This document shows, in pieces, positions 12,591 through 58,251 of a DNA stretch of 64,000 nucleotides (its first letter is position 1; every line of letters begins with the position of its first letter). The notes under the pieces were generated by a model. That model did not search any database, had not been told where the DNA came from, and was given only the letters and a program-made list of their open reading frames with translations. Source of the DNA: Parcubacteria group bacterium Gr01-1014_30 (GTDB lineage Bacteria > Patescibacteriota > Minisyncoccia > Minisyncoccales > 2-12-FULL-40-12); NCBI GenBank assembly GCA_007376185.1, contig VMFS01000003.1:25983-89982 (forward strand), read 5' to 3'. The translations under genes and the position numbers were made by a program.

Positions 12591-12778
12591 GCTCGGCGGT
12601 AAAGTTCCCGTTCGCCGTCCCTCAAAAATCGATCGTCAGCGAAGATGAAGAAGAGATTTATCTCTTCTGACTCCCAGCGAGATTTTGGGGTCTGCGCTCT
12701 CGCGCCGCCATTCCGCCCTCAAGCGGAAACCTTGCTGGCGGCGCTCCGAGAGCCGTCCGGAAACTTCACCGCCTCGCT
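12591..12778. mobile_element. MITE-like GC-rich element with ~20-nt imperfect terminal inverted repeats
   Basis: Ends are gctcggcggtaaagttcccg and ccggaaacttcaccgcctcgc (about 16/20 complementary). Central hairpin agaagaga-ttta-tctcttct. Fills the 12580-12784 intergenic gap. Confidence 0.55.
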
Positions 12779-12784
12779 TAAAAT

Positions 12785-13546
12785 ATGCCTAAAGTATCCA
12801 TCATAGTTAGAACAAAGAACGAAGAAAAGTGGATAGGCGAGTGTTTGAGAGCGGTTTTCGGCCAGAAGTTTAAGGGGTTCGCTGAAACTTCGTCTCCTTT
12901 CACTCCCGCAGGGGCGAGAAGAGAACGAAGTTCTCTGCGAGCGCCTCTCTCTGTTTCACAGAGTTCGGCTTTTGAAGTTGTTGTTGTTGATAACGGGAGC
13001 TTTGACAAAACGTTGGATATCGCGAAAAAATTTCCGGTGAAAATCGTTCATCACAAAGGTAAAGCTTGGTTTCCCGGAAGGTCAATTAACGCCGGAATCA
13101 GAAATTCGTCCGGAAAGTACATTGCTTTGCTTTCGGGACACTGCGTTCCTGTAAACAATAGTTGGCTTAGCGATTTAGTGAGGGAAGTAAAAGCTCCAAA
13201 AATTGCTGGAGTCTACGGCAGGCAACTCCCTTTGCCAGAAAGTTCACCCTTGGACAAGCAGGATTTATTGATGTTTTTCGGCAAAGACCCATTAATTCAA
13301 ACAAAAGGACACTTCTTTTATTTTGACAACGCAAATTGCGTTATCAAAAGGTCGGTTTGGGAGAAAATTCCCTTTGACGCAAAAATTAGGCACAAAGAAA
13401 ACATTATTTGGGGCAGAAAAGTTGTTCAAAGAGGATACAAAATTGTTTACACTCCCAAAGCAAAAGTTTATCACTGGCACGGAATAAATCACGCAGGAAA
13501 TATAAAAAGAGCCAAAGAAGTGGTTAAAGTGCTGGAAAAATTATGA
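12785..13546 (+). CDS. Family 2 glycosyltransferase carrying an in-frame palindromic insert
   Basis: VSIIVRTKNEEKWIGECLRAVFGQ...EVVVVDNGSFDKT is a GT2 N-terminus. A 30-aa foreign segment interrupts it. Confidence 0.75.
   Translation: MPKVSIIVRTKNEEKWIGECLRAVFGQKFKGFAETSSPFTPAGARRERSSLRAPLSVSQSSAFEVVVVDNGSFDKTLDIAKKFPVKIVHHKGKAWFPGRSINAGIRNSSGKYIALLSGHCVPVNNSWLSDLVREVKAPKIAGVYGRQLPLPESSPLDKQDLLMFFGKDPLIQTKGHFFYFDNANCVIKRSVWEKIPFDAKIRHKENIIWGRKVVQRGYKIVYTPKAKVYHWHGINHAGNIKRAKEVVKVLEKL
12881..12970 (+). repeat. In-frame GC-rich palindromic module (90 nt, 30 codons)
   Basis: Encodes AETSSPFTPAGARRERSSLRAPLSVSQSSA between KFKGF and EVVVVDNGS. Arms gaaacttcgtctc / gagaacgaagttctc. Hairpin ctctg-tttca-cagag. 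Confidence 0.7.
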
Positions 13547-20635: not shown

Positions 20636-21396
20636 GTAGAAAATACCCGAAATTTATATATTTCCTATATAACTTCATAAACCCGATAATTAATCCTCAT
20701 CGGTTAGTAAAATTTATACCGGAATATCTTAATTTTTTTAAGAACTTGATTAAATATTTTAGAATGGGAGGGGCAGAAAAATTTAGTTTTTTTGATTTAA
20801 CCCCTTCTCTTTATGAGAGAACGCCAAGTTCGGGATTTGACCGCCATTATTTTTACCAAGACATCTGGGCTGCAAGAAGGATAATTAAAAGTCAGGTCAA
20901 ACGTCATATTGACGTTGGCTCTAGAGTGGATTTTGTGGGTTTTTTATCTGCGGTTTGCAAAGTAACTTTTGTTGACATTCGTCCTTTAGAAGTAAATTTA
21001 AAAAATTTTGAATCAGTGAAAGGCAATATTATATCTTTGCCTTTCAAAGATAATTCTATTCCATCACTTTCTTGCCTGCATGTAGCCGAACACATTGGAC
21101 TTGGCAGGTATGGAGACAAACTAGACCCCAAAGGGACAGAGAGGGCTTGCCGAGAACTTACCAGGGTTTTGGCGAAGGGAGGCAATTTATATTTTTCTTT
21201 GCCAGTTGGCAAACCAAAATTGTGTTTCAACGCGCACAGGATTCACTCGCCTGAACAAATTCTTCAGTATTTTAGCGGCTTAAAATTGGTTGAACTTTCA
21301 GGAGTTAATGACAAAGGCATATTCAGAGAAAAGATTGCCGTTGACCGGCTGAAAAATGAAAATTATGCCTGCGGCCTATTTTGGTTTAAAAAATGA
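20632..21396 (+). CDS. DUF268-like SAM-dependent methyltransferase
   Basis: LSCLHVAEHIGLGRYGDKLDPKGTERACRELTRVLAKGGNLYFSLPVG matches the DUF268 methyltransferase pattern. Confidence 0.55.
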   Translation: MSRKYPKFIYFLYNFINPIINPHRLVKFIPEYLNFFKNLIKYFRMGGAEKFSFFDLTPSLYERTPSSGFDRHYFYQDIWAARRIIKSQVKRHIDVGSRVDFVGFLSAVCKVTFVDIRPLEVNLKNFESVKGNIISLPFKDNSIPSLSCLHVAEHIGLGRYGDKLDPKGTERACRELTRVLAKGGNLYFSLPVGKPKLCFNAHRIHSPEQILQYFSGLKLVELSGVNDKGIFREKIAVDRLKNENYACGLFWFKK

Positions 21397-22883
21397 AGCA
21401 TCAGCTCAATGTTTTCAAAACGGAGTTAAGGGAAAGAGGTCTATTTTATGCTTTGAAAAAGGCAGTGCTTTATTTATTGCGGCCAATTACCGATTTAATG
21501 AAGACAAGCACATTTTTGGTAAACTTGCGGTATGGAGTTTTGCCTAATCTGTTATCAAAAATCACGTTTCATCAAGATAATCTGCTACTAAAACTCCCGC
21601 AAACCGATTTAGTTCGCGCCGTGCGGAACTTTTGGTATGGAAGTATTCTCGACAGGTTTGTTCTTGAAGGAGAGGAAATTAAAAAAGAAGAAATTTTTAC
21701 TTACGGAGGACCTAACCCCGAATTTAGTTGCCCAATTTGCCAAAAGGCAGAGTGGGTGTCAAGAATCAGACAAGAAAATTTATTTTTAGATCATTCTTGT
21801 CCAAGTTCTGAAAAATGCAGGAAATTGTGCGAAAAGCAAGGCAATGATTTATGGACTCACTTTCACCAGAATTTTGATTTTTCTTTGGGTTGCTCCGCTG
21901 ACTTGCCGGCTCCCAAAGGCGTTTACGTCCTTTTTGGGAAACTGGATATGTTTCACGCTCTTCGTTTGGAACCAATGGAGAGAATTTTTCATCGCCAATT
22001 TGCTTTTGCTTGTCAGCTTGATATAGCAGAAGGGCCTTTTGGCATTGACTGGAAAAAATATGATTTTATGTTTATGTATCTTCCGGGAGCCGTGCCCAAA
22101 TTTAAACGTCCACCAATTCCAGTAATTCTTTTCGCTCACGATTTTTGGCGAGAACCCAAAGCCAGTCAGTGGGTATTGGACTGGTTGGAGCCAGAGGTCT
22201 TTTTAACTACTTACCCAACTCAATTTAAAGAAAATTATCGTTTTCCAAAAAATACCAAAGTTGTATTTCACCCCATGTTTACGTCAAATTTCTTTACCAG
22301 ACCCAATCTTTCTCAAAAATCAATTGATTTGCTTTCAGTGGGGAACACCAAGGGGCCTCTTTATCAAGGAAGGAGAAACTTGAATATGCAATTGCAAAAA
22401 TTTAAAGAACAATACCCCTCATATAAACTTGAATTTTCGCACATTGTGGGCACTCTTAAGCCGAATGAGCAAGAGGGACTTGAATACACCGATTCTCAAG
22501 GCAACCAAATAAGATATTTAAATAAATGGTCAGAATACTTGGGAACTGCAAAATATGTTATTTTCGGCAAAATGAAATATCCTATTTTGGTCGGTAAATA
22601 TTACGAAACCTTGGGGTCTGGCGCCATACCCATTTTCCCTGAAGTGCCCGACTTGAAACTTTTGGGAGTAAAACCCTTTGAACACTATATTCCCTTAGCT
22701 GAAATTGAAGGAAATTCAGAAAGATTAAAATATTTTTTAGATAATTACGAAAAATTCAAGTATATTGGCAAAAATGCGGTAAAATGGTATAAAGATAATT
22801 CAGATAAGATGCTTTTTGCCGGTTTTGAGGGCTCAATTAGAGAAGTTACCAATTATAAATTTCCAAAAAGATTAGTTCGCTGA
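21393..22883 (+). CDS. Hypothetical protein with C-terminal GT-B-like (CgeB-type) region; its stop codon is supplied by a repeat module
   Basis: C-terminal KYYETLGSGAIPIFPEVPDL...FEHYIPL. The TGA at 22881-22883 lies inside gttcgctgaaacttcgtttcctctc. Confidence 0.4.
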   Translation: MKHQLNVFKTELRERGLFYALKKAVLYLLRPITDLMKTSTFLVNLRYGVLPNLLSKITFHQDNLLLKLPQTDLVRAVRNFWYGSILDRFVLEGEEIKKEEIFTYGGPNPEFSCPICQKAEWVSRIRQENLFLDHSCPSSEKCRKLCEKQGNDLWTHFHQNFDFSLGCSADLPAPKGVYVLFGKLDMFHALRLEPMERIFHRQFAFACQLDIAEGPFGIDWKKYDFMFMYLPGAVPKFKRPPIPVILFAHDFWREPKASQWVLDWLEPEVFLTTYPTQFKENYRFPKNTKVVFHPMFTSNFFTRPNLSQKSIDLLSVGNTKGPLYQGRRNLNMQLQKFKEQYPSYKLEFSHIVGTLKPNEQEGLEYTDSQGNQIRYLNKWSEYLGTAKYVIFGKMKYPILVGKYYETLGSGAIPIFPEVPDLKLLGVKPFEHYIPLAEIEGNSERLKYFLDNYEKFKYIGKNAVKWYKDNSDKMLFAGFEGSIREVTNYKFPKRLVR

Positions 22884-22921
22884 AACTTCGTTTCCTCTCA
22901 CGTTTAGTTTCGCTTAGCAAA
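22875..22921 (+). repeat. Copy of the GTTCGCTGAAACTTCGTYTCCT module at a gene end
   Basis: gttcgctgaaacttcgtttcctctc is nearly identical to 12877-12901, which is read through in frame there. Confidence 0.7.
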
Positions 22922-22930
22922 ACTCAACTT

Positions 22931-23860
22931 ATGAATACAAATAAAAAAATCCTTGTTACTGGGGTTTTGGGAACCATTGGCATGCCGCTTTGGGAAGAGC
23001 TTAGAAAAAGAGGATACCAGGTTTTTGGCTGTGACCTCCGTCATTATCATGACCCCGAGTATTTGAGATGCGATGTAAGTGAGTATCGGCAGCTGGACAG
23101 AATTTTCAGCGAGCATAAATTTGATTATGTTTACCATATGGCTGCTGAATTCGGCAGAAAAGGCGGTGAAGACTTTTATGAGTCCTTGTGGAAGACAAAT
23201 GCCGTTGGCACGAAAAACATACTAAGGGCGCAAGAGAAATACAAATTCAGGTTGATTTATCCGAGCAGTTCAGAGGTTTACGGCACCGCCTATTCAGGAG
23301 TTATGACCGAAGACGTGCCGCAAAAGGTTGCTGTTCGCTTGGGCAACGATTACGGCATGTCAAAGTGGGTCAATGAAATGCAGATTATGAATTCCATGGA
23401 AAAGTTTGGCACGGAAACAGTAAGAGTTCGCTTTTCCAATGTTTACGGACCCGGAGAATATTACAGCGATTACCGCAGCGTTATCTGTATTTTTATCTAC
23501 AGAACTCTGCACAATTTGCCTTATACCGTTTATAGTAACGACAAAAGGGCATTTCTTTACATAGATGACGCGGTGCGCACGTTCGCCAATATATGTGAAA
23601 GATTCAAATCAGGAGAAGTTTACAACATCAGCAACAGGGATTTGGTAGATATGAAGCAGGTTTCAGACATAATTATCAAAATACTTGGCAAAGATGACCG
23701 GCTTATTGAGTACAAAGAGATAGACGCTACGGCCACTTTGGTTAAAGACCTTGATAACTCAAAGGCCTTGCGCGATTTGGACCACAAAAAAACGATTTCT
23801 TTGGAAGAAGGATTGGACCAAACCATAGAATGGCAGAAAAAAGTTTATGGAATTAGTTGA
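22931..23860 (+). CDS. SDR sugar epimerase/dehydratase
   Basis: ILVTGVLGTIGMPL. SSSEVYG. YGMSKWVNE (YxxxK). Confidence 0.7.
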   Translation: MNTNKKILVTGVLGTIGMPLWEELRKRGYQVFGCDLRHYHDPEYLRCDVSEYRQLDRIFSEHKFDYVYHMAAEFGRKGGEDFYESLWKTNAVGTKNILRAQEKYKFRLIYPSSSEVYGTAYSGVMTEDVPQKVAVRLGNDYGMSKWVNEMQIMNSMEKFGTETVRVRFSNVYGPGEYYSDYRSVICIFIYRTLHNLPYTVYSNDKRAFLYIDDAVRTFANICERFKSGEVYNISNRDLVDMKQVSDIIIKILGKDDRLIEYKEIDATATLVKDLDNSKALRDLDHKKTISLEEGLDQTIEWQKKVYGIS

Positions 23861-25106: not shown

Positions 25107-25153
25107 CTTCGAAATAGTCAGAAGAGATAAATCTCTTCCTTATTTTCGCTAAC
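25106..25153 (-). repeat. Copy of the AGCGAAGATAAGGAAGAGATTTATCTCTTC hairpin core (reverse orientation)
   Basis: gcttcgaaatagtcagaagagataaatctcttccttattttcgctaac is the reverse complement of the cores at 12635-12681 and 44851-44900. Confidence 0.7.
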
Positions 25154-25162
25154 ACTTGATAA

Positions 25163-28377: not shown

Positions 28378-29265
28378 ATGTTGACCATTTTTACAACAAC
28401 AAAGCCATCAATAGGAGAAATTGGCTTCATTCAGAGAAATGCGATTAATAGCTGGCGGTTGTTGAGGCCCAAGCCACAGATACTTTTATTTGACAACGAA
28501 AAGGGCGCAAAAAAACTGGCAAAAGACCTTAAAATAACTCACGTTCCGGAGGTTCGAAAAAACGAATACGGCACGCCGCTGGTTAGAGATATTTTTGAGA
28601 AGGCTCAAAGTTTGGCCAAGAACAGGATTTTGGCGTATGTTAACGCCGACATTATTTTAATGCAGGATTTTATGGAGGCGATTTCAAGGATAAAGTTTGA
28701 TAAATTTGTTCTTGTCGGCCAGAGAAGGGACATTGACATCAAAAAGAATATAAGATTTCAGAAAGGCTGGCGGGAAAAGTTACGCAAGATTGTTGCCAAA
28801 GAAAGCAAGCTTCACGGGCCTTCAGGCATAGATTATTTTGTTTTCCCAAAAGGTTTTTTTTCAAACATACCTAATTTTGCTTTGGGGAGAACTCTTTGGG
28901 ACAACTGGTTTTTGTACAAAGCTTGGATTTCGGGCGCTACTTTGATAGACGCGACCGAAGTTATAACGGCCATTCACCAAAATCACAAAGTTCACCTGCC
29001 CCGAGGGCATAAAAAAAACGTCTGGAAGGGACCTGAAGCTAAAATGAATCAAACGTTAGCCGGCGGGCTATCTCGCGCTTTCACAATCAGGGACTGCTCC
29101 AAACTTTTGACAAAAGAAGGTTTAGAAAATCCCAAGGTCGATTTTTACAGAATCTTTTCCGCGCCTTTCCGTTACTACGACAAGCTGCCAGCTTTAAAGC
29201 CGTTTTTGTTCTTTGGCTGGCTAGTTTTCTTAATATGGCGAAAAATAAAGATAATCAAAACTTAA
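28378..29265 (+). CDS. Hypothetical, possible GT-A-like glycosyltransferase with C-terminal TM helix
   Basis: TIFTTTKPSIGEIGFIQRNAINSW...AYVNADIIL pattern. C-terminal hydrophobic LFFGWLVFLIW. Confidence 0.35.
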   Translation: MLTIFTTTKPSIGEIGFIQRNAINSWRLLRPKPQILLFDNEKGAKKLAKDLKITHVPEVRKNEYGTPLVRDIFEKAQSLAKNRILAYVNADIILMQDFMEAISRIKFDKFVLVGQRRDIDIKKNIRFQKGWREKLRKIVAKESKLHGPSGIDYFVFPKGFFSNIPNFALGRTLWDNWFLYKAWISGATLIDATEVITAIHQNHKVHLPRGHKKNVWKGPEAKMNQTLAGGLSRAFTIRDCSKLLTKEGLENPKVDFYRIFSAPFRYYDKLPALKPFLFFGWLVFLIWRKIKIIKT

Positions 29266-30926
29266 TCAGGATAGGTTTGGCTCAAATAAACTGCACTGTC
29301 GGCGACTTGGAAGGAAATTTCCAAAAAATTAAAGCGTGGATAAAAAAAGCCGAGGATCTTAACCTTGACGTTATCGCTTTTCCTGAGCTTGCAATAACCG
29401 GTTACCCGCCAGAAGACCTTTTGCTCAAACCCAGATTTATCCAAGACAACTTGAAAAAAATAAGAGAGCTAGCACCTTTTGTTAAAAAAACAGCGGCCAT
29501 TGTGGGATTTGTTGATAAAGAAGGAAGTCACATATATAACTCCGCCGCCTTAATCAAAGGAGGAAAAATAGTTGGAGTTTATCGTAAAATGTGTTTGCCA
29601 AACTACGGCGTATTTGACGAAAAGCGTTATTTTCTGCCGGGGCAGAAGCTTTTGGTTTTCAAAATAGGGAAAATTACAGCTGGAATAAATATCTGTGAGG
29701 ACATCTGGGAAGAATCTGGCCCCACAAGGGCGCTGGGCAAAAGGGGGACAAAAATAGTGTTTACCATCAATGGGTCCCCATACCACCAAGGTAAAATTAG
29801 ACAAAGAGAAGAAATAGTTAAAGATCAAGCTAAAGCAAACAAAATTGCAGTAGTTTACATCAATTTGGTAGGTGGCCAAGATGAGTTGGTTTTTGACGGT
29901 CAGAGCATGGTAGTGGATAGTAAGGGTTTAGTGGTCTCGAGAGCCAAAGCGTTTGTGGAAGAGTTGCTGGTGGTGGAAATAGATGCAACGGGTTCTAAAT
30001 TAAAATTTAAAAGTTCAAAATTGGAATCTCTTTTTTTGGAAGAAGAAGTATATAAAGCGTTATTGCTCGGCTTGGGAGATTATGTGAGGAAAAACGGTTT
30101 CAAAAAAGTGGTAGTTGGGCTTTCTGGCGGGATTGATTCATCTTTGGTAGCAACTTTGGCTGTTGACGCTTTGGGCAAAGATAACGTCACTGGAGTAGTT
30201 ATGCCTTCAAGGTTTTCTTCTCTTTTATCAAAAGAAGACGCAGAAAGTTTAGCTAAAAATTTGAGAATTAAATTAATGATAGTTTCTATTGAACCAATTT
30301 TCAAAGCTTACTTGGAAACCTTAAATCCACAAATTCAAGATTTGGAGCAGGATATAGCTATGGAGAACATTCAAGCTAGGATCCGCGGCAACATTTTAAT
30401 GGCTTTTTCCAATAAATTTAACTGGCTGGTTTTGACCACCGGGAACAAATCAGAGATGAGTGTGGGTTATGCCACCCTTTATGGAGATATGGCTGGAGGT
30501 TTCGCGCCCATCAAAGATATTCCCAAAACTTTGGTCTACAAGCTTGCAAGATACAGAAACTCGCTTGCCGAGCCCGTGACGGCGAGGCGGGAGAGGTTAG
30601 CAGAACATTCAGCGACCTCAAGAGTCATACCGGAAAGTGTGCTAGTAAAGGAACCATCGGCCGAGCTGAGGTTAAACCAAAAAGACAGAGATTCTCTGCC
30701 GCCTTACGAAATCTTAGACCCTATCTTGAAGTTATACGTTGAACAGGATTTAGGCGTTGATCGGATTTTGAAGTTGGGTTTTGAGAAAGAGGTTGTTTCA
30801 AAGGTTGCAGGAATGGTTGACAAATCAGAATATAAGAGAAGGCAGTCGCCTCCTGGCATCAAAATCACTCCCAAGGCTTTTGGCAAAGACCGAAGAGTGC
30901 CAATTACCAACAAGTATGGAAAATAA
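29235..30926 (+). CDS. nadE: Glutamine-dependent NAD+ synthetase carrying an in-frame insert
   Basis: N-terminal CN-hydrolase domain (IGLAQINCTVGD, FPELAITGYPPEDL). PP-loop VVGLSGGIDSS. KEPSAEL. Confidence 0.85.
   Translation: MAKNKDNQNLIRIGLAQINCTVGDLEGNFQKIKAWIKKAEDLNLDVIAFPELAITGYPPEDLLLKPRFIQDNLKKIRELAPFVKKTAAIVGFVDKEGSHIYNSAALIKGGKIVGVYRKMCLPNYGVFDEKRYFLPGQKLLVFKIGKITAGINICEDIWEESGPTRALGKRGTKIVFTINGSPYHQGKIRQREEIVKDQAKANKIAVVYINLVGGQDELVFDGQSMVVDSKGLVVSRAKAFVEELLVVEIDATGSKLKFKSSKLESLFLEEEVYKALLLGLGDYVRKNGFKKVVVGLSGGIDSSLVATLAVDALGKDNVTGVVMPSRFSSLLSKEDAESLAKNLRIKLMIVSIEPIFKAYLETLNPQIQDLEQDIAMENIQARIRGNILMAFSNKFNWLVLTTGNKSEMSVGYATLYGDMAGGFAPIKDIPKTLVYKLARYRNSLAEPVTARRERLAEHSATSRVIPESVLVKEPSAELRLNQKDRDSLPPYEILDPILKLYVEQDLGVDRILKLGFEKEVVSKVAGMVDKSEYKRRQSPPGIKITPKAFGKDRRVPITNKYGK
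30561..30620 (+). repeat. In-frame GC-rich palindromic module (~60 nt)
   Basis: Encodes SLAEPVTARRERLAEHSATS between LARYRN and RVIPESV. Stem cgcttgccg / cggcgaggcg. Boundaries are approximate. Confidence 0.5.
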
Positions 30927-37441: not shown

Positions 37442-38782
37442 ATGGCGGACTTGAAAAAGATAATTTCACCAACTGCTTTATTAATTATTTTGGCGCTTAG
37501 CATAGGGCTGACTCCCAGTATTCCAGTTGGCACTCTGGAAGGCTTGGAACGGACAATTGACATTCGGGGAGAAGACATTTGGATTCTTGTCTTGTTTTTT
37601 TTCTGGCTGTCTGTTTTTCTCAAATCAAGGCAAGAGCAAATTGAAAAACCTCCTCTTTTTTTACCAATACTTTTCTGGTTAGGCGCAGGCCTGGTGAGTT
37701 TGTTAATTAACTTGTTTTTGGGGAATATTAATGTGCCGCGAGGAGTTTTTTACTTTGCCAAAGAGCTGCAGTTCTTTTTCGTTTACTTTTTCACTTTTTT
37801 CCATGTCAGAAGTTTAACCACCACGAATAAGCTTTTTCGCATTTGGCTTTTTGTGGCGTTGTTAAACATCGTTTGGGTGTTTTGGCAGATTTTCTTCATT
37901 GGCAGAAGGGGCGAATACGGCACTGCTGCTCTCAATGAATGGGGAGTTTTTCCAACCGGAGCTTTCTTTTTGATTTTGTTTATCTTCATCTTCAACTGGT
38001 GGCTACATGTTTACTGGAAGGCAGGTTTTCCGTTCAAGAAAAAGTACTTGTATCTTGGAGCGATTTTAATAATTATTGTGGGGATTCTTGGCGCTCTTTC
38101 CAAAACGGTTTTTATTGCTTTTTGGGTTGCTCTTTTGATAAGTATGATTTTGTACGTATTAAAGACGAAAACATTAAAAGATGCGTGGGCCTCTTTTTTG
38201 CTTTTTTTGACCGTGGGATTGTTTACCTTCGCCGCTTATCTTTCAGTAATACTGCCAAATCTCCCTGCCGCTGAGCGTTTAATGAAGATTTTTTCTTCTT
38301 CGGATTTGGCCGGGGACGTTCAACGAACACGTTTTGACGTTTCAGCGTTACAGCTTCAAGAAGCGCTTGAGCGGCCTTTAGAAATTTTGGGGCCTAAAGA
38401 AAGCATAGGGCCACTGGCAAACTTTTTGTTGGAAGTTTCAAAGTACGCTTTTGGCCGGGGCAAAGGAGCAATTTTGTTGGGTCCTGAGAGTCACAATCAC
38501 TATTTGCGAAATTTCATAGAAACCGGCATTATGGGGAGTTTGCTTTTTTTGACGCTCATGGTAGCTGTTCTGTATTTTGCGTGGAAAGGATTTAAAGACG
38601 CAAAAAACGCAGTTTCTGTCGGGCTTGCAGCTGGGCTCCTTGTAGCTACTCTGACAGTGCTTTTTATGTCAATCGTGGTTGACGCTTTCATAGTTGTTAA
38701 ACCCAACATGACCTATTGGTTTTTTGCGGGTTTGACAATGGCAACATTATACTATGGAAGAGCGCAAACAAAAGGAAATTGA
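37442..38782 (+). CDS. O-antigen polymerase/ligase-like (Wzy-type) membrane protein
   Basis: About 10 or more TM helices with a large late loop (GPESHNHYLRNFIETGIMG, ligase-type H..Y/N motif). Confidence 0.55.
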   Translation: MADLKKIISPTALLIILALSIGLTPSIPVGTLEGLERTIDIRGEDIWILVLFFFWLSVFLKSRQEQIEKPPLFLPILFWLGAGLVSLLINLFLGNINVPRGVFYFAKELQFFFVYFFTFFHVRSLTTTNKLFRIWLFVALLNIVWVFWQIFFIGRRGEYGTAALNEWGVFPTGAFFLILFIFIFNWWLHVYWKAGFPFKKKYLYLGAILIIIVGILGALSKTVFIAFWVALLISMILYVLKTKTLKDAWASFLLFLTVGLFTFAAYLSVILPNLPAAERLMKIFSSSDLAGDVQRTRFDVSALQLQEALERPLEILGPKESIGPLANFLLEVSKYAFGRGKGAILLGPESHNHYLRNFIETGIMGSLLFLTLMVAVLYFAWKGFKDAKNAVSVGLAAGLLVATLTVLFMSIVVDAFIVVKPNMTYWFFAGLTMATLYYGRAQTKGN

Positions 38783-39509
38783 ATACTATGACAAGAAAGT
38801 TGGCGACTTTCAAAGGTTTAAGCCTTCTTTTTTAAGCAGTTATAAATTTCTTTATCAGCTGCTGAAAAACAGGTGCAGAGATAAAGTTGTTTTAGATTTT
38901 GGCTGCGGCGCAGGATTGCACAGCGTACAATTAGCGAAAATGGGAGCAAAAAAAGTTATAGGCATTGATTTGTCGGAGGCTTCTTTGAAGGCGGCAAGAC
39001 TAAGACATGAAATGCAAGATACGAAACACAATATACAATTTATCAACATGGATTGCGAGAACCTGGATTTTGCGGATAGTTATTTTGATGTTATCTTTGA
39101 TGGCGGAACTTTTTCCTCAATTGATTTGGAAACAACTTGGCCGGAACTGATCAGGGTTTTAAAACCGGATGGAGTTTTAATAGGCATTGAAACGTTTGGG
39201 CATAATCCCTTGACCAACTTGAAGCGGAAATTTAACAAACTGACCGGCAATAGAACTGCGTGGGCGGCAAAGCATATTTTTAGAATGCCAGATTTGGCCA
39301 AAGCCAAAGTATATTTCGGCAGCACTGAAGCTTATTACTTTCACTTAGTTTCCTGGCTGGCATTTCCTTTTTTGCGTCTTCCCGGAGGAAAGTTACTGTT
39401 AAAGATACTTGAACTTACTGATAGAATACTCTTGGAGCTGCCTTTTTTGAGAAAATACTCGTTTAAGGTTGTGTTCATTTTTAGCGAACCGAAAAAGAGC
39501 AATAAATGA
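38754..39509 (+). CDS. Class I SAM-dependent methyltransferase (type 11)
   Basis: VLDFGCGAGLHS. VIFDGGTFSS. LKPDGVLIGIE. Confidence 0.7.
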   Translation: MEERKQKEIEYYDKKVGDFQRFKPSFLSSYKFLYQLLKNRCRDKVVLDFGCGAGLHSVQLAKMGAKKVIGIDLSEASLKAARLRHEMQDTKHNIQFINMDCENLDFADSYFDVIFDGGTFSSIDLETTWPELIRVLKPDGVLIGIETFGHNPLTNLKRKFNKLTGNRTAWAAKHIFRMPDLAKAKVYFGSTEAYYFHLVSWLAFPFLRLPGGKLLLKILELTDRILLELPFLRKYSFKVVFIFSEPKKSNK

Positions 39510-39543
39510 TTAAGCCTTTTGTTTCAGTAATAATTCCTTGTAG

Positions 39544-39605
39544 GCTCGCTGAGACTTCGTCTCCTCTCGCACACTGCGCTCGCTTGCGTGAGCGAAGATA
39601 AGAAC
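39544..39605 (+). repeat. 62-nt palindromic module flanked by a ~43-47-bp duplication of the GT2 gene start
   Basis: gctcgctgagacttcgtctcctctcgcacactgcgctcgcttgcgtgagcgaagataagaac. Flanks 39515-39543 and 39624-39652 are a 29-nt direct repeat with 1 mismatch. Confidence 0.75.
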
Positions 39606-39614
39606 AATAAATAA

Positions 39615-40598
39615 ATGACGACCCCTTTTGTTTCAATAATAATTCCTTGTAGAAACGAGGAGAGATATATAAGTAAGTGTTTGGAAACGATTTTGGCTCA
39701 GGATTACCCCAAAGACAAAATGGAAATTTTAGTTGTTGACGGTATGTCTGAAGATAAAACCAGAGAGATAATTAAAAATTGGAAATTAAAAATTGGAAAT
39801 TTAAGATTATTGGATAATCCCAAAAAAATTGCGCCTTCAGCTCTCAATATAGGCGTAAAAAACAGCACAGGGGAAATAATAATGAGAATGGACGCTCATG
39901 CCCGCTACGAACGAGATTATCTTTCAAAATGCGTGAAGTACTTGAAAGAATACGGCGCTGACAATATCGGAGGAACGATGAAAACCCTGCCCCAAAAAAG
40001 TACCATTGTCGCCAAAGCAATCGCGCTGTCTTTGTCTCACATATTCGGAGCCGCTTCCCGATTTAGAATAGGGGAAAGTCAACCGGTCGCTGAACTTCGT
40101 TCATCTCCTACCCTTCGCTCCGCTCGGGTCAAAGAGGTAGACACTGTTTTTGGCGGATGCTACAAAAGAGAGGTTTTTGACAGAATAGGGTTTTTTAACG
40201 AAAACTTAATTCGTTCCCAGGATTTGGAGTTTAATTTGCGCTTGAAAAGAGCCGGCGGCAAAATAATCTTACATCCTGATATTGTCAGCTATTATTATCC
40301 CAAGCCGACTCTGGGCGAATTTTTCTGGCACAACTTTCAAGACGGCATTTGGTCAATCCTGCCATTGAAGTTTGTCAAAGTTCCTTTTAAGTTAAGGCAT
40401 TATATTCCCTTGATTTTTGTTTTGACTCTGCCCTTGAGCTTTTGGCCGTATATTTTGCTTTCTCTGTTTTTTTCTCTGCAGATTGCCGCTCGAGAGAAAG
40501 ATTTAAGGTTGTTTTTCGCAATGCCCTTGGCTTTTGCGACAAGACATTTTGGTTACGGTTTGGGTTCAATTTGGGGATTAGTTAAGTTAATTTTATGA
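39615..40598 (+). CDS. Family 2 glycosyltransferase carrying an in-frame insert and a 14-nt tandem duplication
   Basis: VSIIIPCRNEERYISKCLETILAQDYP...ILVVDGMSEDKT...RMDAHA. C-terminal TM helices. Confidence 0.75.
   Translation: MTTPFVSIIIPCRNEERYISKCLETILAQDYPKDKMEILVVDGMSEDKTREIIKNWKLKIGNLRLLDNPKKIAPSALNIGVKNSTGEIIMRMDAHARYERDYLSKCVKYLKEYGADNIGGTMKTLPQKSTIVAKAIALSLSHIFGAASRFRIGESQPVAELRSSPTLRSARVKEVDTVFGGCYKREVFDRIGFFNENLIRSQDLEFNLRLKRAGGKIILHPDIVSYYYPKPTLGEFFWHNFQDGIWSILPLKFVKVPFKLRHYIPLIFVLTLPLSFWPYILLSLFFSLQIAAREKDLRLFFAMPLAFATRHFGYGLGSIWGLVKLIL
39770..39806 (+). repeat. 14-nt (2 x 7) tandem repeat aaattaaaaattgg x ~2.5 inside a CDS
   Basis: Read directly. Encodes IIKNWKLKIGNLRLL. Confidence 0.7.
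40083..40130 (+). repeat. In-frame GC-rich module (~48 nt) related to the GCTGAAACTTCG family
   Basis: Encodes PVAELRSSPTLRSARV between RIGESQ and KEVDTVFGGCY. The gctgaacttcgttcatctcct core resembles gctgaaacttcgtctcct. Confidence 0.55.
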
Positions 40599-41236
40599 AA
40601 CGATTTTTTGACTTTACAGCAGCTTTGTTTGGGCTGGTTTTGCTTTCGCCCTTGCTCTTACTTTGCGCAATTTTAATTAAAAGAGAATCGCCGGGACCCG
40701 CTTTTTACAGAGGAATCAGAATCGGCAAAGAGGGCAAACCTTTTAGGATTTTTAAGTTCAGGACAATGGTGCCAGATGCAGAAAATCTGGGCGGCCCTTC
40801 AACAGCGGGCGACGACCCGCGGCTTTTGAAAATCGGCAATTTTCTCAAAAAATACCAACTGGACGAGCTGCCGCAACTGATTAACGTTTTGAAAGGCGGT
40901 ATGAGTTTGGTGGGTCCCAGGCCAGACGTGATAGGAATGGTTGAGCTACTAATAGCGGAGGAAAAAAAAATGATTTTGAGTCAGATACCAGGGATGGTTG
41001 ATTTGTCATCCCTTTGGAATTTTAATGAAGGAGAAAGATTGGCTGGTAAAATAGATCCTCATAAAGTATACTTAGAAGAAATATGGCCAACTAAAAAAAG
41101 GTTACAAATATATTATATCCAAAATCGAAGTACTTGGCTTGATATTAGAATTATTTTTAGAGCAGTATTTAAAATATTTGGTCTTAACTGGTTTGCAATA
41201 AAAATTCATGTTGGAGAAGAAGTGTTTAATTTGTAA
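40595..41236 (+). CDS. Initiating polyprenyl-phosphate sugar phosphotransferase (WbaP/PglC bacterial sugar transferase family)
   Basis: RFFDFTAALFGLVLLSPLLLL...ESPGPAFYRGIRIGKEGKPFRIFKFRTM...DELPQLINVLKGGMSLVGPRP. Confidence 0.8.
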   Translation: MKRFFDFTAALFGLVLLSPLLLLCAILIKRESPGPAFYRGIRIGKEGKPFRIFKFRTMVPDAENLGGPSTAGDDPRLLKIGNFLKKYQLDELPQLINVLKGGMSLVGPRPDVIGMVELLIAEEKKMILSQIPGMVDLSSLWNFNEGERLAGKIDPHKVYLEEIWPTKKRLQIYYIQNRSTWLDIRIIFRAVFKIFGLNWFAIKIHVGEEVFNL

Positions 41237-41633
41237 AAAACAATTTTTGGTGAAACCATATCGGTATATAATTGGAAAGTTTTGTTCGCGCGTGTGTTAC
41301 GGTGCTTTTTTAAAGAGTTATATGAAGGGGCTCCGAAATCCATGGTGGAAAGGCGGTAAGAATAAGAGTACGTGGAGATTAAGAGTGTTAGAAAGAGATA
41401 ACTATACCTGCCAAGGATGTGGAATAAATGATTCTAGGGTTCTTACAGTAGACCATATTAGGAATAAGTCATTGCATAAAGATGTGATATATGAAATTAG
41501 TAATGGTGTCACTTTATGCGCTAATTGCCACTTGATCAAAACTAAAGAAGATAAAGAGCTTAGTGCAGTATTCAGTAAAACTTCAAGTAAAACTGTGCGT
41601 AAAACGCTTTTAGGAAGATATGCCAAACTATAA
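41208..41633 (+). CDS. Free-standing HNH endonuclease with N-terminal zinc ribbon
   Basis: RVLERDNYTCQGCG...LTVDHIRNKS...NGVTLCANCH. N-terminal CLICKK...FCSRVC. The region is AT-rich. Confidence 0.7.
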   Translation: MLEKKCLICKKQFLVKPYRYIIGKFCSRVCYGAFLKSYMKGLRNPWWKGGKNKSTWRLRVLERDNYTCQGCGINDSRVLTVDHIRNKSLHKDVIYEISNGVTLCANCHLIKTKEDKELSAVFSKTSSKTVRKTLLGRYAKL

Positions 41634-41910
41634 AGAAACAGCGAAAGATGCAAGGAAAACAGTCCTCCGCTTAATTTACAACGCCCAGACAAGCCACATA
41701 GGTTCAAATTTTTCGGTAGTGGATATTTTGACAGTTCTTTTTGATAAGGCGGATTTAGACAGAGACAAAATAATCTTGAGCAAGGGATGGGCCGCGGCTG
41801 CTCTTTATTACTTTTTGTGGCGCAAAGGCAGAATTACGGAAAAAGAGCTGAACAGTTATTGTCAACATGTAATGTGCGATGAATGTAAAGGGACGGGCAA
41901 AAAGGCTTAA
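41620..41910 (+). CDS. Transketolase N-terminal (TPP-binding) subunit, 5' fragment, with a foreign CxxCxGxG tail
   Basis: TSHIGSNFSVVDILTVLF...DKIILSKGWAAAALYYFLWRKGRITEKEL is the transketolase N-terminal pattern. Ends with HVMCDECKGTGKKA-stop. Confidence 0.7.
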   Translation: MPNYKETAKDARKTVLRLIYNAQTSHIGSNFSVVDILTVLFDKADLDRDKIILSKGWAAAALYYFLWRKGRITEKELNSYCQHVMCDECKGTGKKA

Positions 41911-41941: not shown

Positions 41942-42757
41942 GTGCCAACAGGAGTTTATAAAAGAACAAAATCAGCTTGGAATAAGGGCCATAAAACGGT
42001 TCACTCTTTTATTTGCCAAACATGTAATCAAGAATTCTTTTCTGAAAGGACAAAAGCAAAATTTTGCAAACGCTCTTGTATAAGAACAGATACACAATTT
42101 AAAAAAGGGCAAAAACCTTTGTATGCATTCTCCAAGGGCATCATTCCATGGAATAAAGGCAAGCGAGAACTTGTTAGAAGGATTTGCCCAACCTGCAAGA
42201 AAGAGTTTTCTTTCGTATTAACAGGTAAGGGAAGCAAAAAAAGAGGTCAGAAATTTTGTTCTGTGGCGTGTAACAGAAGTGATACACAATTTAAAAAAGG
42301 GCATACTTTGAAGCTAAGAATCCTTCATTCTGAAGTAACGAAGAAAAAGTTAAGCGAACTCGTTAAAGAAAGAACTGCTGCAGGAAAACATAATTTTGTT
42401 AAAGGCCATCAATTTGGATTTAAAAAAGGATCTGTCCCTTGGAATAAAGATAAAGATTTCGGCAGCACAGAATATCTTGCAAAAAGAATTTCGTGGTTAA
42501 CACTATATCGTGAATGGCGCCTATCAGTTAAAGAGAAAGATGGATTTAAATGTACAAACTGTGGGGGTAAAAATAATTTAAACGTTGATCATTATCCAGT
42601 TTCTTTAGCAGAGCTTATACGGAAATATAAAATTAAGAATCCACAGGAAACAAAAAAGCGTAGAGAATTTTGGGATATTAAGAATGGTAGAATGCTTTGC
42701 GTTTCGTGTCATAAACAGACACCAACATATGGGAAAAACTTTGTGCGAAAAGTGTAA
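41942..42757 (+). CDS. HNH-type homing endonuclease-like protein (GTG start) inserted within the transketolase gene
   Basis: Repeated zinc-ribbon/NUMOD-like units (FCKRSCIRTDTQFKKGQKP, FCSVACNRSDTQFKKGHT, PWNKGK). C-terminal KCTNCGG...NLNVDHYPVS...MLCVSCH. Confidence 0.6.
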   Translation: MPTGVYKRTKSAWNKGHKTVHSFICQTCNQEFFSERTKAKFCKRSCIRTDTQFKKGQKPLYAFSKGIIPWNKGKRELVRRICPTCKKEFSFVLTGKGSKKRGQKFCSVACNRSDTQFKKGHTLKLRILHSEVTKKKLSELVKERTAAGKHNFVKGHQFGFKKGSVPWNKDKDFGSTEYLAKRISWLTLYREWRLSVKEKDGFKCTNCGGKNNLNVDHYPVSLAELIRKYKIKNPQETKKRREFWDIKNGRMLCVSCHKQTPTYGKNFVRKV

Positions 42758-43289
42758 AGGTAGTGGGAAAATATGGAGTAAATGGATTGGCCTTATAGAA
42801 CCTGTCCACCCCGATCTTGTATTTGCAACAGGGTCTATGGGCGGCGGGCTTCCAGCCGGAGTAGGTTTTGCTTTGGCAAAAAAATTAAAGAAAGAAAAAG
42901 GGACTATTTATGTAGTCGAGTCAGACGGAGGAATGCAAGTAGGTACAACGTGGGAAGCAATCCAAATCGCGGCGCAGTACAAGCTCAACAATTTGGTTTT
43001 GATAGTTGATGACAACTCTTTACAGGCAATGGGCGAGACGAAAAAAATCTTAAACATACATCCTTTGGATAGAAAATTAAAGTCATTTGGCTGGGACGTT
43101 CGAAAAATAAACGGACATAATTTTGCGCAAATTGAAAGGACGATTTCCTTCAGAACAAAAAAGCCTTTGGCCATAATCGCCAAAACAATAAAGGGTTATC
43201 CGATTTCCTTTATGCGTGGAAATAACATTTTTCACTACAAGAACTTGAGCAAACAAGAGTATCTAAAGGCCCTAAAGGAGCTAAATTAA
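42729..43289 (+). CDS. Transketolase N-terminal subunit, 3' fragment, with a foreign CxxCxGxG head
   Basis: Starts MGKTLCEKCKGSGKIWSKW, then ATGSMGGGLPAGVGFALA...VVESDGGMQVGTTWEAIQIAAQYKLNNLVLIVDDNSLQ (TPP-binding motif region). Confidence 0.7.
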   Translation: MGKTLCEKCKGSGKIWSKWIGLIEPVHPDLVFATGSMGGGLPAGVGFALAKKLKKEKGTIYVVESDGGMQVGTTWEAIQIAAQYKLNNLVLIVDDNSLQAMGETKKILNIHPLDRKLKSFGWDVRKINGHNFAQIERTISFRTKKPLAIIAKTIKGYPISFMRGNNIFHYKNLSKQEYLKALKELN

Positions 43290-44719: not shown

Positions 44720-45091
44720 GGGGACAGGACTCAAACTAGAGTCACCTTGAGAAGCGAAAAAAATGAGATGATTTCAAGGCGCAACGACGCAGGCGCACTA
44801 GCGAAAGCGGATGCGTCAAGGAGGAGCAACGCAGAAATCAGCCATCGAGCGTTAGCGAAGATAAGGAAGAGATTTATCTCTTCCGACATTTTTTCGCTTC
44901 CCCCAAGGGCGGGCAAATTAGGACAATCTTCTTCGTTGTTCCGATTCCTTCGGAATCGAGAATCCTCGACAGCTTCGCTGTCGGGACTCGTCGTTAGCGT
45001 ATCTCGTTCCGCAGATACGCTCAGCTCCTCGCGCCTATAATCTTGCCCTAATTCGCTCCGCTCAAGTGATTCTATCTTGAGTCCTATCCCC
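44720..45091. mobile_element. 372-bp non-coding MITE-like element with ~31-nt terminal inverted repeats
   Basis: Left end ggggacaggactcaaactagagtcaccttgag. Right end ctcaagtgattctatcttgagtcctatcccc. The interior is a chain of short hairpins (gattccttcggaatc, cgacagcttcgctgtcg, agcgtatctcgttccgcagatacgct) plus the gaagagatttatctcttc core. Confidence 0.6.
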
Positions 45092-46344: not shown

Positions 46345-46417
46345 ACCCCGTAATACAACTTCCAGCACGCTTCGCGTGCAAAATCGCTGAAAGCGACTGG
46401 AAGATGATATACGGGGT
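46345..46417 (+). repeat. Y-shaped structured repeat, copy 1 (candidate ncRNA / REP-like element)
   Basis: accccgta-atacaa-cttccag-[cacgc ttc gcgtg]-caaaa-[tcgct gaa agcga]-ctggaag-atgata-tacggggt. Confidence 0.7.
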
Positions 46418-46425
46418 AAATAAAC

Positions 46426-55439: not shown

Positions 55440-55511
55440 ACCCCGTAATACAACTTTCGGCGCGCTAAAGCGCAAAATCGCCGAAGGCGACCGAAAGATG
55501 ATATACGAGGT
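55440..55511 (+). repeat. Y-shaped structured repeat, copy 2
   Basis: accccgta-atacaa-ctttcgg-[gcgc...gcgc]-aaaa-[tcgcc gaa ggcga]-ccgaaag-atgata-tacgaggt. Confidence 0.7.
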
Positions 55512-55527
55512 ATTGACTTAAATTTTG

Positions 55528-57592: not shown

Positions 57593-58177
57593 ATGGTTTT
57601 AACCGAGTCGGTTCAAAAATTAAAGAAGGGAGACAAGGCGCCGGATTTTTCTTTGAAAGGCGTTGACGACAAAATATACTCTTTGAAGGACTTTGAAGGC
57701 CTGCCTGCCCCCCTGCGCGGTCAGGCGCAGGCAGGCAAACAAGGCCTTTTGGTTATATTTATGTGTAACCACTGCCCTTACGTGAGAGCGAAACTGCCGG
57801 TCATTGCCGAGCTTTACAAAAAGTGGGGTACTAGGATTTCTTTTTGCGGCATCAACAGCAATGACTCTGGATACGAAGGCGAAGGCATGGACAATATGAA
57901 GGTTTTTGCCAAAGAGAGAGCAATTGCTTTTCCTTACTTGTTTGACACACTTCAAGATGTTGCCAAGGCCTATGGAGCAACTTGTACTCCCGACCCGTTT
58001 TTATTCAATAAAAATTCTGAACTGGTTTTCCACGGACGAATTGACGACGCCACGGGCCCGGGCGAGACGGCCAAAGAGAAGACCATGGACGAGAATATCT
58101 CAAAAATGCTTTCAGGCCAAGAAATTTCTGACGAGTTCAAACCGTCAATGGGATGCTCCATTAAGTGGACCCCGTAA
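57593..58177 (+). CDS. Thioredoxin-fold (redoxin-like) protein with an in-frame insert; its stop codon lies inside a repeat
   Basis: KAPDFSLKGVDDKIYSLKDFEG...LLVIFMCNHCPYV (CxxC). The TAA at 58175-58177 lies within ccccgTAAtac of Y-repeat copy 3. Confidence 0.65.
   Translation: MVLTESVQKLKKGDKAPDFSLKGVDDKIYSLKDFEGLPAPLRGQAQAGKQGLLVIFMCNHCPYVRAKLPVIAELYKKWGTRISFCGINSNDSGYEGEGMDNMKVFAKERAIAFPYLFDTLQDVAKAYGATCTPDPFLFNKNSELVFHGRIDDATGPGETAKEKTMDENISKMLSGQEISDEFKPSMGCSIKWTP
57701..57745 (-). repeat. In-frame palindromic module (45 nt, 15 codons), same family as 56109-56162 but in opposite orientation
   Basis: The reverse complement tgcctgcctgcgcctgaccgcgcag matches tcctgcctgcgcctgaccgcctgtctgcgcag of the other copy. 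Encodes LPAPLRGQAQAGKQG. Confidence 0.7.
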
Positions 58178-58248
58178 TACAACTTTCGGTGTGTTCTTGA
58201 AAAGAACACAATTATCGCCGCAGGCGACCGAAAGATGATATACGGGGT
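58169..58248 (+). repeat. Y-shaped structured repeat, copy 3
   Basis: accccgta-atacaa-ctttcgg-[tgtgttctt gaaa agaacaca]-attat-[tcgcc gca ggcga]-ccgaaag-atgata-tacggggt. It exactly fills the gap between two convergent genes. Confidence 0.7.
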
Positions 58249-58251
58249 GGA

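Follow-up and report, generated by a model that had tools for sequence, protein, structure and literature searches.

The Rickettsia palindromic elements (RPE) are palindromic repeats that sit in-frame in genes, and repetitive extragenic palindromic sequences (REPs) have also been described inside genes (PMC10969869; PMC3733652). The subject here is a repeat of another family, named E in this work, in a stretch of 64,000 nt from Parcubacteria group bacterium Gr01-1014_30 (contig VMFS01000003.1, positions 25,983 to 89,982; the whole stretch is called the window, and positions refer to it). One copy of E stands next to the start of a family-2 glycosyltransferase (GT2) gene, within a second copy of this gene start. 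The initial annotation described a palindromic module flanked by a long duplication, and took the duplication as the mark of an unusual insertion mechanism. Our analysis favors a different order of events, to which we assign a probability of about 0.6: the gene start was duplicated in tandem first, and an ordinary E insertion then survived only in the dispensable copy. The upstream and downstream copies are called c1 and c2, and a slash within a motif marks a junction or an insertion point.

The genes at this locus form a polysaccharide-synthesis cluster, in which an S-adenosylmethionine (SAM)-dependent methyltransferase gene is followed by the GT2 gene and a sugar transferase gene. The stop codon TGA of the methyltransferase gene (gene end 39509) overlaps a spare ATG at 39506. 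The true GT2 start is the ATG at 39615, because the N-terminus read from it aligns with 18 homologues and the PF00535 domain begins at residue 7 (profile position 1). Residues S7, I10, P11, C12, R13, N14, E15 and E16 are invariant in comparison with these homologues, and the whole segment S7-E16 (VSIIIPCRNEE) is largely invariant. The sequence at the spare ATG, AATAAATGATTAAGCCTTTTGTTTCAGTAATAATTCCTTGTAG (39501-39543), aligns without gaps to AATAAATGACGACCCCTTTTGTTTCAATAATAATTCCTTGTAG (39610-39652) with 38 of 43 positions identical; the pair also appears in the repeat listing of the window (D11). The local score of this pair is 30.5, while 3000 unrelated flank pairs gave a mean of 8.3, a 99th percentile of 12.5 and a maximum of 24. 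The similarity reaches to CAATAAA on the left (39500 / 39605) and, when E is removed, to codon 18 on the right, and c1 without E (39500-39543 plus 39590-39604) aligns with c2 (39605-39667) over the whole unit. The duplicated unit is about 60 nt, consisting of about 10 nt of leader and GT2 codons 1-18, and most differences between c1 and c2 fall in the variable codons 2-5.

The initial annotation was right that a duplication regenerates a gene start here, that the upstream copy stops after 31 codons (open reading frame (ORF) 39506-39601), that the downstream copy starts the intact GT2 of 327 aa at 39615, and that a module has been inserted, namely the repeat-family member E at 39544-39589. It was also right that the duplication is unlike the target-site duplication of a transposase. 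Its repeat of ~45 bp is real, but the extent was set too short, and its palindromic module of 62 nt was set too long: only 39544-39589 belongs to E, 39590-39604 is a remnant of GT2 sequence, and the E copy here is not a significant palindrome, since a DNA fold of 39535-39615 gave z = -0.7. The upstream ORF has 31 codons in the window, 25 in L002 and 26 in L153, which are the two other lineages with this structure. The public protein P0001 (301 aa) begins 26 residues past the ATG at 39615, by arithmetic at the TTG at 39693, and is without the invariant IIPCRNEE; the GT2 homologue of L153 is likewise called N-terminally short. Gene callers seem to be misled by the duplicated start.

The comparison of copies shows that E is nested in the upstream unit, 15 nt before the end of that unit, and that the duplication does not flank E as had been claimed. 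In L002, the 15-mer after E (GAACGAAGAAAAATA) matches codons 13.3-18 (R/NEEKY) of the GT2 of another relative, L007, at 15 of 15 positions, and is the sole 15-mer with a match of at least 13/15 in the 8.8-kb locus. The window counterpart GAGCGAAGATAAGAA (39590-39604) is a decayed version, matching GT2 codons 13.3-18 at 11 of 15 positions. In L153, the first 11 nt of the counterpart, AATGAGGAAAA, are the same as codons 14-17 of its own c2. In all three lineages, a stretch of 15-16 nt from GT2 codons 14-18 lies between E and the downstream copy, and the repeat is therefore not a target-site duplication of E. Two other readings of the stretch AGCGAAGATAAG after E, as a duplicate of the methyltransferase tail and as a piece of the repeat family D19, were ruled out by the 15/15 match of L002 to the GT2 codons. 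The insertion point of E in c1 lies after the second base of codon 13, at AG/AAYGAAGAA, which fits the flank preference of the E family described below, and E is in the usual sense frame of the family (xAETSS). The motif IIPCR/NEE, which E splits in c1, does not vary among 19 homologues.

The closest GT2 homologues in a collection of 5.8 billion proteins show 76-77% identity by BLAST (80% and 76.5% in global alignments). L002 (GCA_964372865.1) is syntenic with the window and has the same structure, in which the spare start ATGGTATTTGAATACGTTTCAATTATTATTCCTTGCAG is followed by the same E variant and the real start. L003 and L004, two independent Logan assemblies, have a junction identical to that of L002. 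The third lineage, L153, was found via its N-terminally short GT2 call. Five relatives (L005, L007, L008, L154 and L155) have a single uninterrupted GT2 start, and a covariance model built from 38 E copies detected no E upstream of GT2 in these five. In L005 and L007, the methyltransferase gene is followed by a spacer of 13-18 nt and then GT2, and the window methyltransferase reads on through the spacer of L005. The ATGA overlap in the window is thus derived, and the ancestral junction was spaced and not ATGA-coupled; the initial annotation had expected an uninterrupted junction in related genomes, which is found, and ATGA coupling, which is not.

Three features are shared by the window, L002 and L153: on the left side, the junction CCTTGYRG/GCTCGCTGAG; the locus-specific E variant, CGCACRCTGCGCT...GCTTGCGYG; and the junction of the duplication, AAA(T)A/(G)CAMTAAATAAAT. 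Because these are the same in the three lineages, they point to a single origin of the structure. E is 46 nt long in the window, 56 nt in L002 and 57 nt in L153, and the window copy is without 10 internal nt. The structure is old and no assembly artefact, because it is present in the window and in two other lineages with saturated neutral sites. In L157 (1431-1493), an E copy (49 bits) stands 18 nt upstream of the ATG of a GT2 of lineage P0009. It follows an unrelated AAA-ATPase gene and no recognisable spare start was seen; this copy could have come from a separate insertion, or from the one seen here if the upstream copy was lost afterwards.

E has a consensus of about 54 nt, (G)GTCGCTGAGACTTCGTCTCATCTCCCGCCTCGCCCCGCTTCGCGGGGCTCGGC, and forms a family of double-hairpin repeats. 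Hairpin 1 is GAGAC-TTC-GTCTC. The stem of hairpin 2 is variable and covaries: 93% of cells are paired versus 29-45% with the partner slid, and 57 cells carry double changes versus 16.6 in shuffles, with 0 of 500 shuffles reaching 57. An outer stem of TCGCTGAG and CTCRGCGA, a candidate for terminal inverted repeats, pairs in only a minority of E copies, and the structure string tested was off by one column. Both hairpin loops read CTTCG, and the opposite strand carries GAA mini-hairpins of the GCGAAGC type. Mini-hairpins of this type are unusually stable in single-stranded DNA. The loop sequences hint at a single-strand DNA stage of E. In L137, an E copy has an inverted loop, with GCGAAGC on the top strand. 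No gathering-score hit of Rfam was obtained in the whole window, and 39400-39750 gave only chance-level hits (E > 5). The first 27 nt of the module recur at 12877 and 22875 (D10), and the covariance model detected five E copies in the 64-kb window. The copy at 22874 supplies the stop codon of the ORF 21393-22883 and abuts an ATG at 22931. The copy inside the GT2 gene (40084-40137) is absent from 17 of 18 homologues, and a canonical copy of 54 nt occupies this site in L005.

Most E copies lie in genes. Of 82 non-redundant copies, 59 (72%) are in frames that stay open on both sides for at least 90 nt. The xAETSSHL frame is used by all 39 sense in-frame copies, and the GDETKSQRP frame by 19 of 20 antisense in-frame copies. 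A scan for TCGCTGARACTTCGTYTC in one genome per species gave 53 matches, where about 69 were predicted by chance by our own arithmetic, and about 24 of the 53 were in Patescibacteria-type metagenome-assembled genomes (MAGs), which are a small fraction of that collection. A 23-mer of E matched 90 metagenome stretches, and no copy was found in viral contigs. The family is widespread in Patescibacteria. Four E copies (L012, L016, L037 and L046) are in a MAG labelled Candidatus Humimicrobiaceae (Actinomycetota). Comparison of the flanks of L016 and L017 showed that they closely resemble Parcubacteria bacterium DG_74_1, which suggests mislabelling or a mixed bin. No description of such an element was found in the literature on Patescibacteria, the candidate phyla radiation (CPR) or Parcubacteria, although the silence of a library is no proof of novelty; the E family is apparently undescribed in Patescibacteria.

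The flanks of the family were compared by aligning 100 nt to the left of each of 83 non-redundant E copies against the right-hand sequence. A long flank repeat was observed only for the window copy (score 30.5) and its L002 ortholog (15.5), and the next best was a microsatellite. The search for long flanking duplications at other copies, which the initial annotation had proposed as a check, thus returned none besides the L002 ortholog, and the duplication does not mark a replication/repair-based or template-switch insertion of the module. A short target duplication was also absent in 59 canonical E copies, since the longest word shared by the 14-nt flanks averaged 3.64 versus 3.59 for mismatched pairs. 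The right flank carries a conserved WWTGAWG, in which 50/59 copies have G at +6 and 53/59 have A at +7. The insertion at the internal GT2 site is exactly 54 nt without duplication. The flank AAAGAAG at this site is target sequence, because it is present in the empty alleles of L007, L002 and L008, and the right-flank motif is consistent with a target origin at two further E sites. E therefore normally seems to insert without target duplication, just upstream of a WWTGAAG-like motif. From the nested geometry and the lack of a long flank repeat at other E copies, the long repeat at this locus is no footprint of E insertion.

Features of the GT2 locus and E copies in the window
Feature	Position	Strand	Evidence
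SAM-dependent methyltransferase gene	38754..39509	+	ORF; Pfam Methyltransf_25/11/31; syntenic in L002, L005, L007, L153
c1-left: upstream leader copy CAATAAA and codons 1-13 (MIKPFVSVIIPCR, to second base of Arg codon)	39500..39543	+	38/43 to 39610-39652
Upstream ORF, 31 codons, MIKPFVSVIIPCRLAETSSPLAHCARLRERR, from spare start through E	39506..39601	+	ORF; stop codon 39599-39601
Element E, 46-nt member of the ~54-nt double-hairpin family	39544..39589	+	Covariance-model hit 39543-39597, 34.8 bits, E = 6e-10
c1-right: remnant of GT2 codons 13 (third base)-18 (R/NEEKY), between E and downstream copy	39590..39604	+	Comparison with L002, L007, L153
c2: intact downstream unit, leader CAATAAATAA and codons 1-18, functional start 39615	39605..39667	+	Alignment, homologues, Pfam
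GT2 gene, 327 aa	39615..40598	+	ORF, homologues, Pfam PF00535
Decayed E, in-frame inside the same GT2, adds VAELRSSPTLRSARV	40084..40137	+	Covariance model; homologue alignment
Composite E (5' half, inverted 5' half, hairpin 2), in-frame in GT2-family gene 12785-13546	12876..12968	+	Fold z = -3.65; covariance model; Pfam
Full-length intergenic E, decayed towards AT, hairpins kept	22874..22936	+	Covariance model 61.9 bits
Antisense E, in-frame in NAD synthetase gene 29235-30926	30559..30618	-	Covariance model

Nested geometry, sharing by three lineages and the lack of flank duplications elsewhere are what was observed at this locus, and from them we infer the order of events. Slippage or illegitimate recombination would have made a tandem duplication with two GT2 starts. 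E could then hit either copy, and only a hit in the dispensable upstream copy would have survived; a hit in the working copy would be lost because the invariant IIPCR/NEE motif would be split. Recombination between the copies could delete the structure precisely, which would explain its patchy distribution, including its absence from L005. Replication slippage or template switching is a plausible origin of the tandem duplication, though not of the insertion of E.

Several observations weigh against this history. The order of events was not observed, and no genome was found that has the duplication and lacks E. The microhomology at the duplication junction is minimal (1-3 nt, as inferred against the single-copy junctions of L005 and L007). 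Since E lies in c1 in its canonical frame, it could also have inserted while c1 still served as the working start. The structure is patchily distributed in a star-like phylogeny, in which the empty L005 is nearer to L002 than the window is, and several losses or lateral transfer are needed. Nor does the spare copy show the decay expected of a dispensable relic. The 4-fold sites of the window and L002 are saturated with 49% identity (139/284), whereas E is identical at 51/55 and the c1 core at 19/23 positions; across the window, L002 and L153, E is 86-93% identical versus 39-49% at GT2 4-fold sites. The 8-codon c1 core has at least 9 substitutions in the three lineages, with 6 at third, 3 at first and 0 at second positions. 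Seven of these 9 changes are synonymous, where 26% would be expected under neutrality, and the other 2 are Val/Ile. Because the substitutions in the c1 core are mostly synonymous and none is at second positions, the spare start evolves like coding DNA.

An ATG beside the upstream stop codon and an open frame of 25-31 codons are kept in all three lineages. Substitutions inside E are not coding-like, with 3 of 4 at second positions. Among 68 orthologous, non-independent E pairs, the 3' half of E is 93% identical versus 76% for the coding flanks, and is the more conserved in 67 of the 68; this half lies outside the search pattern, although both members of a pair were selected for an intact 5' motif, which is a possible bias. 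In the first 31 GT2 codons the third-position (synonymous) identity is 0.47 and is not raised, so that a recent recombination tract behind the conserved junction is unlikely. Promoter and terminator scans of the junction of the window and L002 gave nothing above shuffles. RNA folds of the whole junction were no better than shuffles (z = -0.24 and -1.25), and a stable leader structure is unsupported. Possible causes of the conservation are a translated leader, a DNA-level constraint on E, repeated conversion by functional alleles, or a join-point that spread laterally.

The origin of the structure could be explained in other ways. In one step, a replication/repair or template-switch insertion of the module itself would have made a flanking target duplication of ~45 nt; two 43-nt copies do stand on either side of the module, their length is far above usual transposase duplications, and a review of MITEs, miniature transposable elements with inverted repeats, treats flanking direct repeats solely as target duplications. 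This is very improbable, as the module is nested with 15-16 nt of GT2 codons before the downstream copy in three lineages, and a long flank repeat was seen in 0 of the 81 other E copies, which show no short duplication either. Alternatively, E could have entered a single working start in-frame and impaired GT2, with rescue by unequal recombination with an E-less allele, or by duplication and precise excision of E downstream. E in c1 does use the frame of all surviving sense in-frame copies, the differences between c1 and c2 in codons 2-5 are allele-like, the Arg codon of L153 is CGG in c1 as in L007 and AGA in c2, and the internal GT2 copy of E is present in the window and L005 but not in L002, a pattern that hints at precise loss or at gain more than once. 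However, this course of events needs more steps and a rare illegitimate exchange, and the shared junction implies a single event, so that the allele-like differences arose later anyway. A protein search with a designed GT2 carrying E at PCR/NEE found none, although only six candidates, all truncated normal GT2s, were scored, which makes the test weak. We regard an E-first origin as unlikely. An assembly artefact or two genuine tandem GT2 paralogue starts, either of which the initial annotation thought would overturn its reading, have virtually no chance of being the explanation. Nothing beyond the repeat itself speaks for them: the same architecture is found in four assemblies from other samples (L002, L003, L004 and L153), the two copies differ at 5 of 43 positions and so are no collapsed repeat, and the upstream fragment is just 18 codons long with an element inside.

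Two further explanations were weighed. The spare start and E might be a translated upstream ORF coupled to the preceding stop codon, and/or a DNA or RNA element controlling GT2, kept by selection. This proposal concerns maintenance and is compatible with any origin. The retained ATG and open frame, the coding-like c1 core and the high identity of E here and of the 3' halves of E elsewhere are in its favor. In contrast, no promoter or terminator consensus and no favorable RNA fold was obtained in the scans above, the stop of the upstream ORF varies in position (13 versus ~40-45 nt before the GT2 ATG), the changes within E are not coding-like, and five related lineages do without the structure; the sample is small. 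We consider a functional leader possible but rather doubtful. The upstream fragment could also be the 5' end of a resident GT2, displaced when homologous recombination imported a foreign GT2 allele or just the join-point, and the structure would then have spread laterally between lineages. This would suit the patchy distribution in a star-like phylogeny, the much higher likeness of E and its spacer between lineages than of neutral sites, and the lineage-specific codons 2-5 of c1 next to c2 N-termini that are alike (MTTPF, MTPI and MMTPF). But the first 31 GT2 codons have no elevated synonymous identity, and L153 shows no sign of a left/right mosaic: relative to the other lineages its GT2 identities are all 74-78%, and its methyltransferase identities are 74-77% except to the window (65%). 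MTP-type N-termini also occur at empty sites (P0015; L154 is empty). Such an allele or cassette replacement is improbable, and a tandem duplication followed by insertion of E into the dispensable copy stays the preferred history.

The long flanking duplication is thus no evidence for a new insertion mechanism, and the locus shows how selection filters where repeats such as E can persist. The wider value lies in the E family, which combines Rickettsia-like in-frame behavior across small-genome Patescibacteria with covarying hairpins and unusual conservation; together with the unexpected conservation of the spare start, it is the more interesting lead. In the spare start, E is kept in three lineages, and any constraint on it there is not attributable to a host protein; this copy would therefore help to test whether E is selfish, structural or regulatory. 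We tentatively propose, at odds clearly below even, that E represents an undescribed Patescibacteria class of small DNA-hairpin elements, with two CTTCG-looped hairpins, insertion without target duplication next to a WWTGAAG motif, one frame per orientation, and tighter conservation than the surrounding coding DNA, which would imply function or active maintenance, and that the spare start and E have in addition been co-opted as a conserved, translated leader of GT2.

Other repeats and a split gene were observed in the window. The gene of the transketolase N-terminal subunit is in two pieces, 41620-41910 and 42684-43289 (Transketolase_N profile positions 109-268), split by a 271-aa ORF at 41942-42757 with Cys-rich, HNH-like motifs. 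A further HNH ORF (41208-41633, PF01844) lies just upstream. Transketolase genes are unsplit in L002 and L153, and a weak 30-nt repeat (24/30), encoding C-x-x-C-K-G-x-G-K, is found at both break points. Copies of a second repeat family, ATCGAKCGTYAGCGAAGATRAGGAAGAGATTTATCTCTTCYGAC, whose hairpin is GGAAGAGAT/ATCTCTTCC, occur at 12628-12671, 44844-44887 and 25116-25160 (minus strand), and the AGCGAAGATAAG stretch of this family resembles 39591-39602 after E. A third family has a unit of ~75 nt bounded by ACCCCGTAATA...TATACGGGGT at 46345-46418, 55440-55512 and 58169-58249. A near-perfect palindrome of 77 nt at 2131-2207 is separate from the third family.

Five known systems can be compared with this locus. 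At first sight, the direct repeats on both sides of an inserted repeat resemble the target-site duplication of a transposon or MITE. However, the repeats do not abut E on its 3' side, they are ~60 nt long, and other E copies have no duplication. Programmed translational bypassing is known from T4 gene 60 and the mitochondrial byp elements. Like these systems, the locus has an inserted GC-rich hairpin amid AT-rich coding sequence, and the codons that precede the insert recur unchanged at a 'landing' copy downstream. In contrast to them, the downstream copy comes with an ATG of its own, a conserved leader and an N-terminus that looks coding, across a gap of 109 nt. Elsewhere, most E copies have an open frame and a length divisible by three, and they are evidently translated.

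In its small GC-rich hairpins, the lack of target duplication and the motif at one flank, E resembles REPs with their associated tyrosine transposases (REP/RAYT) and the single-strand transposition of IS200/IS605 (PMC3733652). In contrast to REPs, E is mostly intragenic (72% in open frames) and low in copy number (about 5 per 64 kb), and no GTAG/CGTC tag is present at its end: CGTC lies inside hairpin 1 (GAGACTTCGTCTC), and the GTAG beside the window copy is GT2 coding sequence (TGT AG). The RPE also resemble E in behavior. Both are short palindromic repeats found in-frame in many unrelated genes, where they add a hydrophilic peptide without stops that is tolerated by the proteins. E differs from RPE in length (~54 nt versus ~100-150 nt) and in host, which is Patescibacteria and not Rickettsia. 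E also differs in its almost exclusive use of one frame per orientation, in the covariation of hairpin 2 and in evolving more slowly than its coding flanks. The nearest counterpart of the duplicated start itself is the 5'-end tandem duplication made by slippage or illegitimate recombination. Without E, the locus is two head-to-tail units with one shared junction and an intact downstream gene, revertible by recombination. It is unlike such a duplication in that its spare copy carries a nested repeat, has been kept for long in at least three lineages and evolves like coding DNA.

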